Shown here piece by piece: positions 1-58,867 of a DNA stretch of 64,000 bases. The position numbers were made by a program, and so were the translations under genes. Below the pieces are notes generated by a model. That model had not been told where the DNA came from. It made no database searches and worked only from the letters and a program-made list of their open reading frames with translations. The stretch's first letter is position 1, and the number at the start of each line of letters is the position of its first letter. Source of the stretch: a virus. Lineage: Duplodnaviria; Caudoviricetes. The stretch covers positions 1 through 64,000 of IMG/VR virus record IMGVR_UViG_3300037424_000723; one strand, given 5' to 3'.

Positions 1-1337
1 TCCTCCCTTAAGTCTGCTTGGCTATCCTTATTGCCATCTAAGGCGCTTTGATAATCAGCAAACGCCTTTTGGGATTCAAGAATAGAGGCGTTAAAAGCGT
101 CTTGCCCTGCTGCCAAGTCAGTTGTCGAGTTAAGCGCCTCTGAGATAGCTACAATGCCGCTAGGTATGTCGCCTGTTGCAAATTCAGCCAATGCTTGAAG
201 TGATTTTAGGTAGGGTCTAATCCCCTCTTGTGCTGCCTTAAATGAGGCATTGGTTAAAGCGATAATTTGAGCCAGTGTTACCAGGGCATCGTCCAAATTA
301 GTCAGCAGGTTGTAAAAGAAGTCGCCCGCGTCATTTGTGCCAGCTACCGTACCGGCCAGCGCCAGGAATTGCCCCCCGGCCAACTGTAGGGCGTTGATAA
401 TGTTGAAAATGTAATCAGCTATATTTTGAAGCGTACCAACATCTAGCCCGCCAAAATCAAGGCCAGAAAACAGATCAATAACATCGGCAATAGCTCGCCC
501 GATAGTGTCAGCGAATACGATTAAATCATCTTGATTTGCCGATAGAAACTCATTTATCTTATTTGCCGCATCTTCCAGTGATTGCAAGATAGGAGTGCCG
601 ACTCTGCCGCCTAATTGCTCACCAGCAATACTGAGCCTAGAAAATGCCGTTTGAGCAGTATCAGCTAAATCCTCAAAACTTCTACCCCCCTTATCCAGTA
701 CCTGTTCAAAAGCACCCAAAAAGCCCTCAATACCTTCTTTATCAAAGGCATCTTTTAGAAGCTTTATATCATCTCTTGGTATCTCAAAGCGCCTATTGAG
801 GCTGGTAAATGTGCCGGATAGCGCTTCTATAAGGGCAATTCTAGCCCCGATAGCGCCCTGCTCCGGGTCACTTCTGGCTAGGGCTGTAGCGATTTTAGCC
901 ACGCGTTCAAATTGGGCTAGGCTCTCGGTTTTGGGAATAAACGCGCCGGCTACTTCTGATAAGTCAAAACCAAGCTCTTTACTCTTATCCTGTATAAAGG
1001 TAAATGCCTCATCTGCTGCCTCTTGTGAGCCATCAAAGATACCGCCTAGCCGGGCCTTAAGTGTATCTACTTCCAGCGCCGTTTGTACGCTCTGCTTACC
1101 AATATCAATTAAGGCAGTAATAGCCTGTTGCCCCAGGTTGATAAAGGCAGTAGTGACAGATGAGACAATGCCGGAGACTACTCCGATCTGTACACCGCTG
1201 GCACTGGCTGATTTACCCACCGCTTGAAAGTCACTTGATGCCTTTTTAGACAGTCCGTTAATACTGGCATCAATCCGCTTTAAGGCAGCTAATATTTGCT
1301 TGTCGTCAAGTTGGGCCGTGTAAATTAAATCAGGCAT
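1..1337 (-). CDS. Tape measure protein, N-terminal part (runs off the window)
   Basis: Hand translation MPDLIYTAQLDDKQILAALKRIDASINGLSKKASSDFQAVGK...; Ala/Gly-rich helical protein downstream of tail tube and chaperones; ATG overlaps the upstream stop. Confidence 0.85.
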   Translation of the reverse strand, partial: MPDLIYTAQLDDKQILAALKRIDASINGLSKKASSDFQAVGKSASASGVQIGVVSGIVSSVTTAFINLGQQAITALIDIGKQSVQTALEVDTLKARLGGIFDGSQEAADEAFTFIQDKSKELGFDLSEVAGAFIPKTESLAQFERVAKIATALARSDPEQGAIGARIALIEALSGTFTSLNRRFEIPRDDIKLLKDAFDKEGIEGFLGAFEQVLDKGGRSFEDLADTAQTAFSRLSIAGEQLGGRVGTPILQSLEDAANKINEFLSANQDDLIVFADTIGRAIADVIDLFSGLDFGGLDVGTLQNIADYIFNIINALQLAGGQFLALAGTVAGTNDAGDFFYNLLTNLDDALVTLAQIIALTNASFKAAQEGIRPYLKSLQALAEFATGDIPSGIVAISEALNSTTDLAAGQDAFNASILESQKAFADYQSALDGNKDSQADLRE

Positions 1338-10718: not shown

Positions 10719-10828
10719 TTGTCACAAGTTGGTAAATATTGCCGGTATAATCTATACTTAACTTACTAAGCGCTTTGTGCTGCCAACTTGTGACAAATGA
10801 GGCAATCGCACAGGGCGCTTTGTATTTT
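10719..10828 (+). promoter_or_regulatory. Structured leader/attenuator 2
   Basis: 14-bp IR 10719-10732/10783-10796; hairpin 10768-10780/10808-10820 followed by TGTATTTT. Confidence 0.7.
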
Positions 10829-10837
10829 GAGGTAGAA

Positions 10838-11275
10838 ATGAAACGATGTAGTAAGTGCAAAGAACTGAAAAACATAAGTGAATTTGGCAAAAACAAGAGT
10901 GAAAAGGATGGCCTACAGGATGCTTGTAAAAATTGCCGAAAAGCATATTATCAAATACCAAAAATAAAAACAAAGCACAATGAGACATCCAAGAAATATA
11001 AGCAATCTCAATCTGGAAAAATAACGGTTAAAAAATCATCTTCAAAAAGACGTAAGAATAACCCTGCTTGGTACAAAGCTACCAACGCAGTAAATAACGC
11101 CATTAGAGACGGAAAATTACCCAAAATATCCACATTAAAATGTAGCAATTGTCCTAATCAGGCCCATGACTATCATCATTATTTGGGGTATGGCCTTATA
11201 CATTGGCTTGATGTAATTCCTGTATGCCGGAAATGTCACGTTGATATAACTCTACGGGAATCTTCATCGGCCTAA
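10838..11275 (+). CDS. Zn-ribbon plus HNH-like endonuclease, antisense to the operon
   Basis: KRCSKCKELK...DGLQDACKNC N-terminus; CSNC...HH..GY...LDVIPVCRKCH; RBS GAGGT before ATG 10838. Confidence 0.8.
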   Translation: MKRCSKCKELKNISEFGKNKSEKDGLQDACKNCRKAYYQIPKIKTKHNETSKKYKQSQSGKITVKKSSSKRRKNNPAWYKATNAVNNAIRDGKLPKISTLKCSNCPNQAHDYHHYLGYGLIHWLDVIPVCRKCHVDITLRESSSA

Positions 11276-12930: not shown

Positions 12931-13654
12931 CTACCCCCACCTGATAAAACGCATTTTCTTGATACGGATGCGCGTAAAATAGCCAATCAATCCCCACCGT
13001 TGCCCCGGCAAACTGTTGGAACCACGTCGCATTGTCTACCCCCTCGTATTCATAACTAGAGGCGAATAGATACTCTTTTGCTGCCACTTGTGACAATAAT
13101 CTTTCTCGCTCTGGTATTGGCATCTCGCTTAGAGAATGTGAAGCGATAAGCAAATCACAGGATTGAGGCAATGAATCCCATTGTATGATACCCTGTCCTT
13201 TTACGTCTTTGGTTGTTTCAGTTAAATAATAACGCTGGATTGTCTCAAGTTCCGGCAAGTCAACGATATGATACAATCCCCTAAACCCTAGCCGGTAAAT
13301 TATCAAGGCCATTGCCCCGTAACCCGCGCCTATCTCGACAATCGTATGTATCTGGGTTATATCCTGCTTAGTCCGGTCTAGCCATTGTTTAAGATGATAA
13401 GCTTGATGGATTAAATTAGTACAGCTTGCATATCCATTCCCGGAATGAAGTGTATCACGACTAAATCCATCCCACCTAACTGGCATCATCCACTTATTCC
13501 AGTCTGTAGCCAATTCGTTATACTCAGGTGTGACATGTGGCGCATTGCCGACAAACATAGTCGCCTGGATCGTTGACCACTGTAGGAAGTTATCTAGGCT
13601 TTCATTAGCGAGATGCGCTCTGAGTGATTGCCGGTAATTATCCCAATTTGTCAT
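12914..13654 (-). CDS. Putative sugar O-methyltransferase
   Basis: TNLIHQAYHL...IVEIGAGYGAMA...IVDLPE...ASHSLSEMP. Confidence 0.75.
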   Translation of the reverse strand: MTNWDNYRQSLRAHLANESLDNFLQWSTIQATMFVGNAPHVTPEYNELATDWNKWMMPVRWDGFSRDTLHSGNGYASCTNLIHQAYHLKQWLDRTKQDITQIHTIVEIGAGYGAMALIIYRLGFRGLYHIVDLPELETIQRYYLTETTKDVKGQGIIQWDSLPQSCDLLIASHSLSEMPIPERERLLSQVAAKEYLFASSYEYEGVDNATWFQQFAGATVGIDWLFYAHPYQENAFYQVGVDGSTK

Positions 13655-14354
13655 TATATCCTAATTTCTCCATCATCCATCCAAATTCATTCCAAATTTG
13701 CTCATTCATTGCAGGCGTAAAATAATTGCGCCAGTTACCGACAATGCCAGTATGTATATTTTGCCGGCGTAGTTCGGCTTCATTGTCACCTATTTCAGCC
13801 TTACGAGTAGCAAAGGATTGACGTTTGATCGCCTGAATAAGCCTGTTATCTTCATACTGTACATCAATTCGTCTCAAGGCGCGTTGGATCCAAAATTGAG
13901 GGTAATCTAATAATCGCTCATAGGTCATTATGGTCATTCTACGATTGCCCAGATAATACCACTTCTCGCAATATTCATCCCACCGACCACAGCCGGCCAC
14001 GTCACCCCGTATCATTCGCTCTAAAAACACCTCATTGCTTACCTGCCAATGATACGCCCCGCTTACGCAGATAGCACGCGGGTCACGCACCAAAAAGATT
14101 ATTTTTTCATCGGTTAATTGTTTCCAGGCTAATTGATGCGCTTGCGGCACAAGCGCCCCCGCATCATCGTCTATTAAAGTGAAATGCCCGCGCCGAATAA
14201 GGTAAGGCCCAGGGCGCTTCCTGGTTACAATCCCAATCTCTGCCGGGGTAGATTCAATTGTAGATGAATTGAGCGCGTCACCCAATAGATTAGTAAGCCA
14301 AGTTGAGCCACTTTTGGGATAGGCGCTTATTATGATCTCAGGTTTTGGCTTAAT
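13638..14354 (-). CDS. PAPS-dependent sulfotransferase with non-canonical start (ATT candidate)
   Basis: In-frame IIISAYPKSGSTWL (5'-PSB) lies upstream of the ORF-track start; RDPRAICVS (3'-PB); GIVGNWRNYFT. Confidence 0.85.
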   Translation of the reverse strand: MKPKPEIIISAYPKSGSTWLTNLLGDALNSSTIESTPAEIGIVTRKRPGPYLIRRGHFTLIDDDAGALVPQAHQLAWKQLTDEKIIFLVRDPRAICVSGAYHWQVSNEVFLERMIRGDVAGCGRWDEYCEKWYYLGNRRMTIMTYERLLDYPQFWIQRALRRIDVQYEDNRLIQAIKRQSFATRKAEIGDNEAELRRQNIHTGIVGNWRNYFTPAMNEQIWNEFGWMMEKLGYNDKLG

Positions 14355-14365
14355 TGTTCACAACC

Positions 14366-14668
14366 TTATATTTTATCGTCAACATATATATTAGCCTCAT
14401 CTTTATGCACCCATTGATAACCCGCAAATGTAGCCCACTCTAATTGCATCCTAATTTCTAATGGCGTATCGGGATTTGTCATCAACTCAAATACTTCTCT
14501 GGATGCGATATGAGTACGCCTATATTCCCAATCGGGACTTTTCATCTTTTCTTCTTCATCTTTGGCATGTTTTATCATCTGCTCTTGTATACGCCGAAAT
14601 GTATCAATAAGACTAGGCGGTTCTTTATTTGAATCATAATCAAAGTTCACAAGAGTAGTGTCATCCAT
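14366..14668 (-). CDS. Hypothetical protein
   Basis: Coupled 100 aa ORF. Confidence 0.6.
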   Translation of the reverse strand: MDDTTLVNFDYDSNKEPPSLIDTFRRIQEQMIKHAKDEEEKMKSPDWEYRRTHIASREVFELMTNPDTPLEIRMQLEWATFAGYQWVHKDEANIYVDDKI

Positions 14669-15365
14669 TGGAATAATCCTCTTTTAATCGCCTCAATCCA
14701 TCCTCAGTAATCACAAAGCTGATTAAGGTATCAACGTGCAAAGCTACCTCGAAATAAGGGCACAGGAATTTACGCACCGCCCTATCTACACCCGGCCAGG
14801 GTAACGGGTGCATAACCTTACCAGTTAGTTGACCACTGGCATACACCCGCTTCTTATCAAAGTCGTGTACTGCCATAATGCCACCGGGTTTAATGTTGGG
14901 CAACCAGGCCAGTATGTCACCTTTTGCGCCTCGGTAGGAATGTGAGCCATCTATGAATACCATATCCACTAAATGTTTGTTTTGACCCCAAAGTCTAACC
15001 TCAAAATCAAACAATGGGGGTTTTTGCCACATCAAACCAATAGCTTTGCTATCACCCTGCATTTGAAAAAAACGATTATTACTGTATAGCCTTGTTTCTG
15101 GAAATGCCTTGTTGATTATTCTTTGTTCGGCTACTAAACAGCCAAATGGGCTATCATCTCTTTGTATATCAATAGTCCATAGTTTCAAATCCGGTCTACT
15201 CTCCATAAATGCCAGTCCGCTAGTGCCCGCGCCCGCGCCTAAATTTATAACCGTAGGATTATCAGGGAGTAACTTTGCTAGTTCCTTCAATGATCTTAAT
15301 TCATTTTCTGTTAAGTACCCAAAAGCTTGCTGTAAAGTGTCTGATGAATGTATCATTTGTGCCAT
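14661..15365 (-). CDS. Class I SAM methyltransferase (Methyltransf_24-like)
   Basis: INLGAGAGTS...VDMVFIDGSHSY...IKPGGIMAVHD. Confidence 0.88.
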   Translation of the reverse strand: MAQMIHSSDTLQQAFGYLTENELRSLKELAKLLPDNPTVINLGAGAGTSGLAFMESRPDLKLWTIDIQRDDSPFGCLVAEQRIINKAFPETRLYSNNRFFQMQGDSKAIGLMWQKPPLFDFEVRLWGQNKHLVDMVFIDGSHSYRGAKGDILAWLPNIKPGGIMAVHDFDKKRVYASGQLTGKVMHPLPWPGVDRAVRKFLCPYFEVALHVDTLISFVITEDGLRRLKEDYSNG

Positions 15366-15385
15366 CGGTTCATTTGTGATATACT
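15357..15385 (+). promoter_or_regulatory. Promoter of the NUMOD4-HNH gene
   Basis: TTGTGC-17-TATACT with extended TG; overlaps the start codon of the divergent methyltransferase. Confidence 0.65.
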
Positions 15386-15407
15386 ATAAAAAGGAGATAA
15401 AGTAAAT

Positions 15408-15953
15408 ATGGAAGAAATTTGGAGAGATATTATTGAATATGAAGGACTATACCAAGTATCGAATCTAGGCAATGTAAAAAGTATTGTTGGCATTAGAATA
15501 GATAGTAGAAGTAGAATATACAAGTTACCTCTAAAGGTACTTAAATCACAGTACGATAGATATGGTTATCTTCATGTTAGTTTATATAGACAGAAAAAGG
15601 TTAAGCATAAATTGATACATCGTTTGGTACTTGAGGCATTTATTGGTAATTGTCCTAAAGGAAACTATGCTAATCACAAAGACGGCAATCGAGCGAATAA
15701 TAAATTAAATAACCTTGAATGGTGTACTCCAAGTGAAAACAACTTACATGCCTTTAGAGTATTAAATAGAAAACCAGTTTATGTATGTGGTATAAAAAAC
15801 GCCAATGCCAAATTAACTGATGATAAAATACGATATGCAAAAGAACTAAGACAAAAAGGATTTACCTTCCAGAAAATAGCAGATGAACTAGGCATTGCAA
15901 AGTCACACGCTAAACGAATAATTGATGGTAAGTCTTGGGGGCATATTTTATAA
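15408..15953 (+). CDS. NUMOD4-HNH homing endonuclease, antisense to the operon
   Basis: EIWRDIIEYEGLYQVSNLG...IHRLVLEAFIG...NHKDGNRANNKLNNLEWCTPSEN. Confidence 0.96.
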   Translation: MEEIWRDIIEYEGLYQVSNLGNVKSIVGIRIDSRSRIYKLPLKVLKSQYDRYGYLHVSLYRQKKVKHKLIHRLVLEAFIGNCPKGNYANHKDGNRANNKLNNLEWCTPSENNLHAFRVLNRKPVYVCGIKNANAKLTDDKIRYAKELRQKGFTFQKIADELGIAKSHAKRIIDGKSWGHIL

Positions 15954-16048
15954 TCTGGCAACATCTGAACAAGCTGTTTTAACGTTGCTAATTCAGCCTC
16001 GGTAAGATAGCCAAAAGCGGCTTGTAAATCAGCACTAGTTTGAGGCAT
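15954..16048 (-). pseudogene. Orphaned original 5' end of the methyltransferase gene
   Basis: MPQTSADLQAAFGYLTEAELATLKQLVQMLPD aligns with HSSDTLQQAFGYLTENELRSLKELAKLLPD; homology ends at the HNH stop codon. Confidence 0.85.
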
Positions 16049-17159
16049 AAAACTCCCTCACCTTATCGCAAATAAAACTGACATTATCATCTGTCAACCC
16101 ACAGTGAAGCGGTAGCAATAGCGTCTCGCGCGCCGCCCGTTCTGCATTGGGTAAGCTATCGGGTAGATTGTAGGCCCAATGTAGGGGGTAATAGCGGAAG
16201 GTGCAATAAATCGAGTTGGCCTTGAGATAAGCGGCTAATTCATCACGCTTGGGGGTTTGTATCCAGTAGAAGTAAAGCGATGTTCTTTTATTTGTTCCCC
16301 AAAGCCATATGTCCGGTTGCTTTATCTGGTTCATATTCTCAAATTGATTACGATAATGAGCGCAAATATCACGCCGTCTTTCGATAAATTGGGGCAACTT
16401 CTTCAACTGTTCTAACCCCATTGCCGCTGCTATGTCATTCATCACTGACCGTCTAGCCCCGGCAATGTCTACCCCAAATTCCCACCACCTATCCTTGTTG
16501 CTATTTAGCCCGCTTGCTTCACTTGTGCCTAGATAAATCTGCTTTCTAGCTCTAGTGGCTAACTCAGTATCCTTAAGCCACAGCATGCCACCGTCGCCAG
16601 TGCTGATGATCTTCATCGCATCAAATGACCATACGCCAATGTCACCAAACGTGCCAACCGCTTGACCGTTGAAAGTCGAGGCCGGCGCATTGGCCGCATC
16701 CTCTATTAAGCGTATGCCGGGATGATAGCTCAGCAGGCTAGTTATCTCTGCCATACCACAAGGTACACCGCCATAATGATTGAGGATAAGCGCCTTAGTT
16801 TTGTTGGTTATCTTTGCCTGAATATGATCTGCCGTTACGTTTAACGTCCTGCTATTCACGTCGCAAAATACCGGAGTAGCCCCGGCTGCTATCACCGCTT
16901 GAGCTGCCCCCACAAAATGAATAGTCGGGATAATCACCTCATCACCCGGCCCAATGCCTAATAATGCTACCGCTTGAAATAGCGCCTCAGTACAAGAGTT
17001 GATTGAGACAACATTAGCCGGGTTAGAGCCGATATGCGAGGCCCATGCCGCTTCAAATTCGTCAACCTTTGGGCCTTTGCCAATCCAGCCAGATTGAAAG
17101 CTATCGGCAATAGCCAGGAGTTCATCTTGTCCAGGCGAAGGAGAGAAAACAGGTATCAT
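16035..17159 (-). CDS. DegT/DnrJ/EryC1/StrS sugar aminotransferase
   Basis: NSCTEAL...GDEVI...IEDAANA...SFDAMKIISTGDGG. Confidence 0.95.
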   Translation of the reverse strand: MIPVFSPSPGQDELLAIADSFQSGWIGKGPKVDEFEAAWASHIGSNPANVVSINSCTEALFQAVALLGIGPGDEVIIPTIHFVGAAQAVIAAGATPVFCDVNSRTLNVTADHIQAKITNKTKALILNHYGGVPCGMAEITSLLSYHPGIRLIEDAANAPASTFNGQAVGTFGDIGVWSFDAMKIISTGDGGMLWLKDTELATRARKQIYLGTSEASGLNSNKDRWWEFGVDIAGARRSVMNDIAAAMGLEQLKKLPQFIERRRDICAHYRNQFENMNQIKQPDIWLWGTNKRTSLYFYWIQTPKRDELAAYLKANSIYCTFRYYPLHWAYNLPDSLPNAERAARETLLLPLHCGLTDDNVSFICDKVREFYASN

Positions 17160-47325: not shown

Positions 47326-47568
47326 CTATCTATCACCATAATTAGACGGATGGCCCGGATGCCAACTCATATCATCTTCGTCATCGGCATAGGATTCATA
47401 ATCATCTTCCTCTGGCGTGCCATCGGGTAATATGTTTCTTGTCCCTTTACACTCAGGATAAGTAGAGCAACCCCAAAACTTCTTGTCATCAGACCGGCGA
47501 GTCCTGAGTACCATATCTTCATAACACTCTGGACACTTAGGAACGGGGATTGTGCGAATATTCATCAT
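47326..47568 (-). CDS. Topoisomerase-type C4 zinc-ribbon protein with acidic tail
   Basis: CPECYEDMVLR...FWGCSTYPECKGT. Confidence 0.88.
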   Translation of the reverse strand: MMNIRTIPVPKCPECYEDMVLRTRRSDDKKFWGCSTYPECKGTRNILPDGTPEEDDYESYADDEDDMSWHPGHPSNYGDR

Positions 47569-48122
47569 TCCTCACTTAGTAAACGAATCCAAGTTTCAGC
47601 CCTTGTGATTCTACCAATAGTTGACATGGTTATACCAAACTTCATTGATAACTCCTTGTGGGTAGTGTTGCCTTTTCTGTATTCATTATAAACATCAAGA
47701 ACAATATCACTCGTTAATTTCGTGGCGGGGTTTTTCTCGCCAAACAACCTTAATTCAGGATGCTTACGAAAACCACTTCTATCACCTGTTGCGTGATTCC
47801 CTCTTCCCCTGATCTCCCTATCTCTGGCATTTTCCTTTTCTGTTCCAAGATATAAATGTTCTGGATTAACGCAATTTCTAACATCGCACATATGAAGCAC
47901 ATGTAATCCGTTAACTATTGGGCCGTTGTGGATAAGCCAAGAAAACCTATGAACTATCAATGTTTTCTTCTTTGAGCTTATATGTCCGTATCCTTTACGT
48001 ATTTTTCTTCCTGTCCATACCCAACATGGTGTACCAACGTAGGGAACTATTGGCCCATATTTATTAACATTAGACCAAAATTTGGCAAGAACCACTTCAT
48101 CATAATATGGATTATAGATCAT
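47565..48122 (-). CDS. HNH homing endonuclease (HNH_3)
   Basis: KFWSNV...CWVWTG...VHRFSW...VLHMCDVRNCVNPEHLYLGT. Confidence 0.95.
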   Translation of the reverse strand: MIYNPYYDEVVLAKFWSNVNKYGPIVPYVGTPCWVWTGRKIRKGYGHISSKKKTLIVHRFSWLIHNGPIVNGLHVLHMCDVRNCVNPEHLYLGTEKENARDREIRGRGNHATGDRSGFRKHPELRLFGEKNPATKLTSDIVLDVYNEYRKGNTTHKELSMKFGITMSTIGRITRAETWIRLLSEE

Positions 48123-58363: not shown

Positions 58364-58867
58364 CTAAATATGAGACCAGGTTCTTTTACTTATTACATAG
58401 CATATAGTAACCTGGGTTACATTAAAGATAACCGATAATTCTTTTGATGTATATTTTTTATCCTGATAGAACTTTCTAATTTGCAAGACCTGCTCTGGGT
58501 TTAATTTTGCGGTAGGAGTTTTGTTTCTATTTATAAATTCTGGTATTCTTCTACCTTTTTTGATGGCATCTTGATTATTATCTTTATGAGTACCCAAGAA
58601 TAAATGAGACGGATTGATACATTTGCGATTATCACAGGTATGACAAACTAATATATCAATCGGTAAATCAATATCATTGGCTAAACTATATGCTACCCTT
58701 GAGGCAGTAATAAGATTACCGTCTACCCAAAATCTACCGTATCCTGAATTACCTACTTTTCCTTGCCATTCCCAACATTCATCAGGATTACCAATTTTTA
58801 CTTTAGACCAAAATCTATTTATTTGGTCTTTACTTAATTTAGGTATATTTCTAATTTTTAATTTCAT
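58364..58867 (-). CDS. HNH homing endonuclease (HNH_3)
   Basis: RFWSKVK...CWEWQG...ASRVAY...VCHTCDNRKCINPSHLFLGTHKDN. Confidence 0.96.
   Translation of the reverse strand: MKLKIRNIPKLSKDQINRFWSKVKIGNPDECWEWQGKVGNSGYGRFWVDGNLITASRVAYSLANDIDLPIDILVCHTCDNRKCINPSHLFLGTHKDNNQDAIKKGRRIPEFINRNKTPTAKLNPEQVLQIRKFYQDKKYTSKELSVIFNVTQVTICYVISKRTWSHI

Follow-up and report, generated by a model that had tools for sequence, protein, structure and literature searches.

A homing-type HNH endonuclease gene inside a phage sugar methyltransferase gene is flanked by two diverged copies of the 5' end of that gene

We analysed a stretch of 64,000 nucleotides (hereafter the window; positions 1 to 64,000 of IMG/VR record IMGVR_UViG_3300037424_000723) from the 77-kb genome of an uncultured phage. 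A gene for an HNH homing-type endonuclease lies there inside the reading frame of a sugar methyltransferase (MT), which is encoded on the opposite strand (Table 1). On one side of it is a stub of the MT frame, next to a gene for a DegT-type aminotransferase; on the other side, a complete MT gene begins with a second, homologous N-terminus, hereafter the working start. A preliminary description made from the sequence alone had reported a stub ending at the stop codon of the HNH gene, a full gene with a homologous N-terminus beyond it and largely changed synonymous sites between the two. These observations were confirmed, with the correction that the working start is three residues longer than the stub.

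Table 1. Features of the methyltransferase locus (positions in the window)
Feature	Position	Strand	Description
DegT-type aminotransferase gene, upstream	16035..17159	-	PF01041, E 4e-83
Stub, apparently the stranded original MT 5' end	15953..16048	-	32 codons, ATG to LPD
89-codon junk ORF	15779..16048	-	32-codon stub + 57 codons antisense through the HNH gene
Free-standing HNH homing-type endonuclease gene	15408..15953	+	181 aa, NUMOD4 + HNH_3 + probable C-terminal helix-turn-helix
Spacer between the divergent HNH and MT starts	15366..15407		42 bp, GC 0.262
Working, divergent MT 5' end	15261..15365	-	35 codons, corresponding to the two-helix N-terminal cap
Complete SAM-dependent (sugar) O-methyltransferase	14661..15365	-	234 aa, PF13578, E 1.6e-10

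The stub closes with the codon for D32 (15955-15953), whose final base, 15953, also ends the TAA stop codon of the HNH gene (15951-15953). Since the stub ends on this base and the HNH ORF is full length, one end of the foreign tract coincides exactly with the end of the nuclease gene, at a junction whose position can be resolved only to about 3 nt. The stub start overlaps the last 14 nt of the DegT gene, and a good ribosome-binding site (GAGGGAG) stands 5-11 nt before its ATG. Judging from tblastn coordinates, DegT-type genes also abut or overlap the MT start in the relatives L012, L014 and L017. Because of the 14-nt overlap, the stub looks like the original, translationally coupled start of the MT gene. 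The longer ORF that opens with the stub has no Pfam family match; for annotation, it is a scar and not a gene.

The HNH protein matches NUMOD4 (PF07463, E 6.8e-12, 45.9 bits for a cut-off of 23.4) and HNH_3 (PF13392, E 7.4e-12, 45.1 bits for a cut-off of 24.8). At its C-terminus HTH_7 scores 20.2 bits, under the cut-off of 23.8, and the sequence there probably forms a helix-turn-helix module. The protein aligns with the homing endonuclease I-HmuI (PDB 1U3E, E 5.2e-13), including the HKDGN...NN...N motif, and residues H90, N102 and N111 are invariant in the alignment with its relatives. Compared with these relatives the ORF is full length and keeps the conserved C-terminal W-x-H-I of the family. 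With a GC content of 0.319, against 0.454 for the genome, the gene is compositionally foreign. Judged by its sequence, it is an intact, I-HmuI-like NUMOD4-HNH free-standing endonuclease gene of the homing type; its presence inside the MT frame had already been proposed, and the Pfam and I-HmuI matches bear this out. Among 102 loci that carry related nucleases, a screen returned one other, weak case of a similar layout (L150).

Two known arrangements were considered for this locus and set aside. An endonuclease encoded by a group I or group II intron does not fit, as no Rfam match for an intron-like RNA was found at E <= 1 within 14300-16400, and the endonuclease ORF is antisense to its host gene. 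A gene split into two working polypeptides does not fit either: the downstream MT has its full length, its first 35 codons being duplicated in the stub.

The spacer holds the ribosome-binding site of the HNH gene (AGGAG, 15392-15396) and an extended -10-like site (TGn-TATACT, 15377-15385) that was read by eye and is below the threshold of the consensus scan. The scan for promoters and terminators did not exceed the number of sites seen in shuffled sequence, and no site fell at the start of the MT or HNH gene. The working MT start is preceded by neither a Shine-Dalgarno motif nor a convincing promoter; about half of the genes of this phage likewise lack one. The MT itself has 274 homologues and retains their nearly invariant columns, and we expect that it would still be expressed.

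The two MT starts were then compared with each other. Aligned over the first 35 codons of the working start, they are identical at 21 of 32 residues and at 59% of bases. The same codon is used at only 8 of the 21 conserved residues, and Nei-Gojobori estimates give a pS of 0.95 and a pN of 0.26. This is as deep as the divergence between the window MT and the MT of L008, the nearest syntenic contig (pS 0.82). With synonymous sites saturated, the working start must be a long-diverged allele rather than a recent local copy. The similarity is itself significant (E 6.9e-6 against the whole genome, E 1.2e-7 in an all-against-all search of six-frame pieces), and the latter search revealed no second gene-end duplicate in the 77-kb genome. 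The working start had been called "recoded", a term that implies design; ordinary divergence of a foreign allele fits the data equally well.

An assembly artefact, in which two strain variants were fused into a metagenomic chimera, has to be weighed here, as the record is an uncultivated viral genome from a metagenome assembly. We find this scarcely credible. Two starts sharing 59% of their DNA are too unlike to mislead an assembler, the junction abuts the end of an intact ORF, the contig carries terminal repeats, and identical MT and HNH proteins are each found on three contigs.

Comparison with relatives indicated which of the two starts is the odd one. At the N-terminus, the stub shares 81-88% identity with four near MT relatives (P0002, P0007, P0009 and P0017), including 28 of 32 residues with P0007, while the working start is at most 66% identical to any N-terminus among 119 relatives. 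At the protein level, the N-termini of all 12 near relatives are closer to the stub (0.56-0.88) than to the working start (0.48-0.66); examples are 0.81 versus 0.59, 0.88 versus 0.62 and 0.87 versus 0.63. This agrees with the earlier proposal that the stub is the original start. The rest of the MT is 72-76% identical to its five nearest relatives (P0002-P0006), and the working start falls about 1.6 residual standard deviations short of the identity that the rest of the protein would predict for the N-terminus, a moderate excess of divergence near the 5th percentile, drawn from non-independent comparisons in a visibly mosaic family. When residues were scored for rarity among the 119 relatives, the stub and the working start could not be told apart, as both fall within a minor subclade. 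Scans of the IMG/VR, JGI and GTDB collections with the MT, an MT alignment, DegT, the HNH protein and an HNH alignment found only relatives of at most 54% identity over the whole gene, with the exception of one 58-residue piece at the end of a contig (64% identity). P0122 and P0123 are relatives of the HNH protein at 70% and 52%; a query with the first 70 MT residues, aimed at the flanks of the 958-bp contig of P0122, gave no match. L008 carries the DegT-MT pair without an HNH gene, at protein identities of 54-62%.

The stub and the working start share the subclade-specific residues GYLT..EL and LPD, as would be expected if the start of the gene had been duplicated locally when the nuclease gene inserted, the working copy then diverging rapidly in place. 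A pS of 0.95 requires time, however, and over that time a non-functional stub should have decayed; it is instead undecayed and 88% identical to the working N-terminus of a relative. The two copies thus did not diverge in place, and we regard a local duplication as very improbable. The two starts could also descend from ancestral tandem MT paralogues, the upstream one having been cut down to 32 codons by the nuclease gene or an adjacent deletion and the downstream one being an old paralogue that has a start of its own. Tandem arrays of two or three MT genes do occur in the distant relatives L024, L027 and L031. Such copies are limited to a group of about 36% identity, however, and the loci nearest by sequence and gene order (L008, L012, L014 and L017) have a single MT after DegT. 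In addition, the stub resembles the N-termini of the same relatives as the body of the downstream gene does, which is not expected of an old pair. This origin is quite unlikely.

In an AlphaFold model of the MT (pLDDT 84), helices span residues 8-15 and 20-32 and a loop spans residues 33-37; the nearest solved folds are MeT1 (6G7D), MycE/MycF and CalS11. On this model, the swap point, where the divergent start gives way to the rest of the gene, sits in the loop that links the two-helix cap at the N-terminus to the first Rossmann strand. Codons 40-56, which begin 5-6 codons after the swap point, form one of the two stretches of the MT gene most conserved in DNA. Conserved stretches are the kind of sequence that homing endonucleases target. 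Base composition gave no sharp right-hand limit for the foreign tract: the GC content of the 35-codon working start is 0.352, and GC3 is 0.29 for the new start, 0.31 for the stub and 0.34 for codons 36-120.

The explanation we favor, with a probability of roughly 0.6, is a break-and-repair event that copied the nuclease gene into the locus along with a 5' end from a diverged MT allele. An I-HmuI-like HNH gene would have entered the sugar O-methyltransferase gene after codon 32. The copied tract would have run from the nuclease stop codon through the nuclease gene and the 42-bp spacer into at least 35 codons of a diverged MT allele, the previous neighbour of the nuclease; the working start thus probably came in with the HNH gene. 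The body of the resident gene would have been joined to the foreign 5' end at the loop that precedes the first Rossmann strand, a join that preserved a full-length MT, and the resident's own 32 codons would have been displaced upstream and left dead. Most likely, the nuclease would have initiated the event by a nick or break in or near the conserved SAM-motif-I region of an uninterrupted allele. Repair would have been homologous downstream, with an illegitimate, one-sided join upstream at the nuclease stop codon. Once formed, the block of stub, HNH gene and new start would have homology on both sides and could spread by ordinary homing among phages with a DegT-MT pair. Over the final 30 bp ahead of the junction, the stub and the working start show 13 mismatches, and for this reason the nuclease could act poorly on the new allele. 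The preliminary interpretation of intron-less homing with gene rescue, which included a cut near codon 32 and an immune new allele, is partly supported by our results; the cut site and the immunity are conjectural.

A break at the same place need not have involved the nuclease. Two diverged phages co-infecting a cell could have recombined out of register, with genome A broken at MT codon 32 and joined just outside the nuclease gene of genome B, so that the whole MT of B, or much of it, replaced that of A and the nuclease was a passenger. Such a scar exists in the DegT gene of L008 and L020, where a stub of 37-38 codons is followed by an insert without a nuclease and then by a full DegT gene whose start is more diverged; the joint carries a 29-nt copy of the 3' end of the upstream gene. 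Out-of-register recombination alone can therefore produce the stub-insert-full-gene pattern, as the L008 scar contains no nuclease. The MT family is mosaic, low GC3 reaches to about codon 120, and phage nuclease genes are often found at recombination boundaries (PMC10448857). Several observations nevertheless weigh against this course of events. The joint coincides to the base with the nuclease stop codon, which would rarely be expected from a random crossover. Only the first 35 residues of the MT are odd, and the rest is as close to its relatives as expected, which favors a short foreign tract. Finally, a nuclease that appears active and site-specific from its sequence lies at the joint and would be an obvious source of the break. 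We therefore hold recombination with a passenger nuclease to be unlikely, though it deserves serious consideration.

If the favored break-and-repair reading is true, a homing endonuclease can settle in a tightly packed phage operon and the interrupted gene can survive, through a supplied substitute for its first structural module. Nucleases would then be a direct source of chimeric phage proteins, beyond the co-conversion of flanking sequences. The locus also offers a natural pair of a presumed target and a presumed immune sequence for an I-HmuI-type enzyme, which would be useful to map its recognition. More tentatively, and with less than even odds, free-standing phage homing endonucleases might form self-contained cassettes for the replacement of gene starts, in which the nuclease, divergent start signals and an immune foreign first module would move together as a single unit. 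Such an element would colonise operons whose overlapping genes leave no intergenic space, and the -35-like hexamer of its nuclease would comprise codons 2-3 of the replacement start. It would represent an undescribed way for selfish nucleases to make chimeric phage genes. A non-exhaustive literature search turned up no account from phages of a replacement gene end linked to a nuclease.

The closest parallels come from fungal mitochondria, as the preliminary description had suggested. In mobile ORFs that carry a foreign gene end, known from atp6 of Allomyces macrogynus and from atp6, atp9, cox2 and nad3 of Glomus (PMC3630166, citing Paquin et al. 1994), an endonuclease ORF lies in a coding sequence and a diverged duplicate gene end completes the gene (PMC3630166). 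The displaced native end is closer to relatives than the inserted end, as it is in the window at the protein level, and silent changes or a foreign origin account for most of the difference between the two ends, with a DNA identity of 64-81% there and 59% in the window. The window shows this layout in mirror image. The fungal elements replace a 3' end, and their LAGLIDADG or GIY-YIG ORF is in frame and co-transcribed; at the phage locus the 5' end is the one replaced, and the HNH gene lies on the opposite strand. The new end must therefore also supply start signals.

The nuclease itself is closest to I-HmuI, an intron-encoded nicking HNH endonuclease of Bacillus phage SPO1 (PDB 1U3E), with which it shares an identical domain order and the aligned HNH motif. 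I-HmuI is encoded in a group I intron, whereas no intron was found around the nuclease gene described here, which is on the strand opposite to its host gene. Free-standing homing endonucleases of T-even phages (SegF, SegG, SegB and MobE) move by intronless homing (PMC2988022, PMC13565253, PMC2790892). Like the gene in the window, theirs have a conserved gene as neighbour, and homing co-converts the sequence around them. In these phages self and non-self are distinguished by substitutions in that neighbouring gene, a pattern that the diverged 5' end beside the window nuclease would fit. The T-even genes lie between intact genes and leave no stub, whereas the window block follows codon 32 and a stub remains; the overlap of the MT start with the end of DegT leaves no intergenic space, hence the position of the block inside the reading frame.

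Homing endonuclease genes also split phage genes, as in nrdA/mobE of Aeh1, gene 39-60/mobA of T4 and gene 43 of phage 25 (PMC2988022). There, too, the nuclease gene lies in a coding region beside a functionally critical motif (PMC2988022). Those genes yield two working polypeptides without duplication; in the window, the downstream gene is complete and makes the upstream piece redundant. For the joint itself, a possible precedent is known from T4, where break repair during homing can be one-sided and illegitimate (Parker et al. 1999, as reviewed in PMC2988022). As the review presents it, homology is present on one side and little or none at the other junction, which would match the join proposed here at the HNH stop codon. 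The T4 case is described there as experimental, with engineered substrates, in contrast to a reconstruction from a natural scar, and such repair is put forward as a route by which mobile elements reach new sites (PMC2988022).

Within a group of minus-strand sugar-modifying genes, a homing endonuclease gene (HNH) separates a complete sugar O-methyltransferase gene (MT) from a stranded copy of its 5' end. This stub has 32 codons ending in LPD, and base 15953 is common to its D codon (15955-15953) and the HNH stop codon, in agreement with the preliminary description. Past the stub, the minus-strand frame continues for 57 codons antisense to the HNH ORF up to a stop at 15779, and 42 bases lie between the HNH start codon and the start of the complete MT. 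A second homologous N-terminus with changed synonymous sites had been claimed for the complete gene and was also found: the stub and the first 35 codons of the complete MT (hereafter the working start) have 21 identical residues and 59% identical bases, with the same codon in only 8 of these 21 residues (pS 0.95, pN 0.26). The match is significant genome-wide (E 6.9e-6, and 1.2e-7 in a second search), and no other gene-end duplicate was found in the 77-kb genome.

Features of the interrupted methyltransferase gene, its neighborhood and the nuclease-free parallel
Feature	Position	Strand	Remarks
Cluster order		minus	GT10-like glycosyltransferase, small ORF, DegT aminotransferase, MT, 100-codon ORF, sulfotransferase, second methyltransferase
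DegT	17159-16035	minus	precedes and overlaps the stub's ATG
Stub start codon	ATG at 16048	minus	14 nt within the end of DegT; GAGGGAG ahead of ATG
HNH ORF	15408-15953	plus	stop TAA 15951-15953
Complete MT	15365-14661	minus	234 codons; PF13578
DegT scar in L008	L008:2643-4520 (also L020)		stub, joint copy, insert, full DegT

The source record is a 77,330-bp uncultivated virus genome with direct terminal repeats, the window being its first 64 kb; a repeat of about 190 bp shows up at the two ends (window 1-195, genome 77139-77330), where six-frame pieces are identical. In the sulfotransferase ORF (13638-14370, minus), the PAPS-binding loop YPKSGSTW is encoded 5' of the first ATG/GTG/TTG, right after an in-frame TGA.

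From its sequence, we concluded that the inserted ORF is a free-standing homing endonuclease gene and belongs to a very large family (4,284 matches at E <= 1e-5). NUMOD4 and HNH_3 domains pass the Pfam cut-offs, with a helix-turn-helix just under, and the protein matches I-HmuI, a nicking homing endonuclease of solved structure (1U3E, E 5.2e-13), with the catalytic HKDGN...N motif aligned. Compared with its nearest relatives (70% and 52% identity), the protein is complete and retains the conserved C-terminal W-x-H-I. Its gene is preceded by an AGGAG ribosome-binding site and has a GC content of 0.32, whereas the genome averages 0.45 and the neighbors 0.44-0.48. No intron or other Rfam family was detected within 14300-16400. 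Four further nuclease-like ORFs are present in the genome (3036-3605, plus; 47565-48122, minus; 58364-58867, minus; 10775-11275, plus). Three are HNH_3 + zf-His_Me_endon paralogues with 31-39% mutual identity and the fourth is a weak DUF968 match; two lie antisense inside minus-strand gene blocks, as does the HNH studied here, and no duplicated gene end was detectable next to any of the four.

Comparison with 274 MT homologues (the nearest 72-74% identical) was used to decide which start is original. The stub matches the N-termini of relatives P0002, P0007, P0009 and P0017 at 26/32, 28/32, 26/30 and 25/30 residues, whereas the best identity of the working start to any relative is only 19-21/32; for each of the 12 near relatives in the comparison, the stub was the closer of the two. 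When every pair of relatives is considered, N-terminal identity increases with identity of the protein remainder. Pairs with a remainder identity of 0.70-0.75 have a mean N-terminal identity of 0.75 (5th percentile 0.60), and the working start reaches 0.48-0.66 against the five relatives in this band. Its average residual is -1.6 SD (all relatives with remainder identity >= 0.65), a moderate excess of divergence; the comparisons are non-independent and the MT family is mosaic. On the same relation, the stub combined with the gene body would be ordinary. Because of these comparisons and the native context of the stub (DegT overlap, good ribosome-binding site), the stub was taken as the probable original, and a foreign origin was assigned to the working start as the probable reading. 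Silent sites between the two are saturated as deeply as between the window MT and the 54%-identical MT of contig L008 (pS 0.82), and the stub, though useless, is undecayed, which makes divergence in place very unlikely and indicates a working start derived from a long-separated allele. In the alignment of these relatives (A1, P0002-P0017), P0004 is the best match to the variable middle of the window's MT (residues ~86-140), yet its two ends are of the other family type, a mosaic that points to probably frequent recombination within the gene.

In the AlphaFold model of MT (pLDDT 84), helices 8-15 and 20-32 are followed by a loop (33-37), the first Rossmann strand (38-42) and the GxGxG loop. The exchanged piece would thus be a discrete two-helix cap with its joint inside a loop. 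The fold is nearest to the sugar O-methyltransferases MeT1 (6G7D), MycE/MycF and CalS11. Codon-level alignment of 20 MT genes places the joint at a local minimum of DNA conservation, directly ahead of codons 40-56, one of the two most conserved stretches. Conserved sequences are typical targets of homing endonucleases, and HNH may read this stretch.

In the mechanism proposed here, an uninterrupted allele was nicked or broken around codons 32-40, and the donor used for its repair carried the nuclease gene beside a diverged MT. Downstream, repair would have proceeded through MT homology; upstream, where homology was lacking, the resected end would have been joined at the nuclease's stop codon. 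The finished block, with homology on either side, could thereafter home normally. Illegitimate repair of this one-sided kind has been documented during T4 homing (reviewed in PMC2988022). In the 30 bases leading up to the joint, stub and working start differ at 13 positions, which would be in keeping with a rule whereby free-standing nucleases distinguish self from non-self via substitutions in the neighboring gene (PMC13565253). The overlap of the MT start with the end of DegT leaves a nuclease gene no intergenic space, a constraint that a cassette bringing a new start would solve.

The nuclease could also be a passenger of an out-of-register crossover, an explanation kept alive by a scar of the same kind in the nearest syntenic contig. 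This groundwater contig, L008 (and L020), carries a GT10-like glycosyltransferase, DegT, MT and a second MT in the order of the window. Its DegT stub (37-38 codons, sharing 82% identity with the start of DegT in the window) meets a joint carrying a 29-nt copy (93%) of the 3' end of the upstream glycosyltransferase. Next comes an insert of ~375 bp that holds two small zinc-ribbon ORFs, and then a full-length DegT whose start is much more diverged. No nuclease is present now at the L008/L020 scar, which bears the signature of such a crossover between diverged genomes. In the MT, however, the joint coincides to the base with the nuclease's stop, and the oddness is confined to the first 35 residues. 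The preliminary reading of homing with gene-start replacement is partly supported. Tandem MT copies, two or three, occur in distant relatives (~36% identity; L024:32-1656, L027:2330-3927, L031).

At the new MT start, no Shine-Dalgarno motif was found, as for about half of the phage's genes, and no promoter passed a consensus scan. As a candidate promoter of HNH, a TGa-TATACT at 15377-15385, with TTGTGC 17 nt upstream (the complement of MT codons 2-3), was matched by eye, its -35 agreeing at only 3/6 positions. Base composition gives no right-hand boundary of the foreign tract. The MT relatives returned by contig scans had at most 54% protein identity along the full MT, apart from a single 58-residue piece at a contig end (L033, 64%), and the nuclease relatives did not exceed 51%; among these relatives there was no empty site, second filled site or DNA-level right boundary.

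The stub-nuclease-full gene layout is rare in the NUMOD4-HNH family. Screening 102 IMG/VR loci that carry related nucleases brought up one further weak candidate (L150:122-1371), in which a 15-codon stub is followed by a NUMOD4-HNH gene (221-748) and by a ParB-N/methylase-like gene whose start matches the stub with weak statistics (E 1e-3) and begins at 745, overlapping the nuclease stop. In the T4 literature, phage cases comprise intergenic nucleases that leave no stub and genes divided into two functional polypeptides (PMC2988022); no replacement gene end in phages was described in the literature searched, which is not proof of absence. The layout matches that of fungal mitochondrial endonuclease elements that bring along the foreign end of a gene (Allomyces atp6; Glomus atp6, atp9, cox2 and nad3), whose inserted end is 64-81% DNA-identical and whose native end, as in the phage MT, is closer to relatives (PMC3630166). 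Unlike these elements, the present case replaces a 5' end, involves an HNH nuclease encoded on the opposite strand and resides in a phage.
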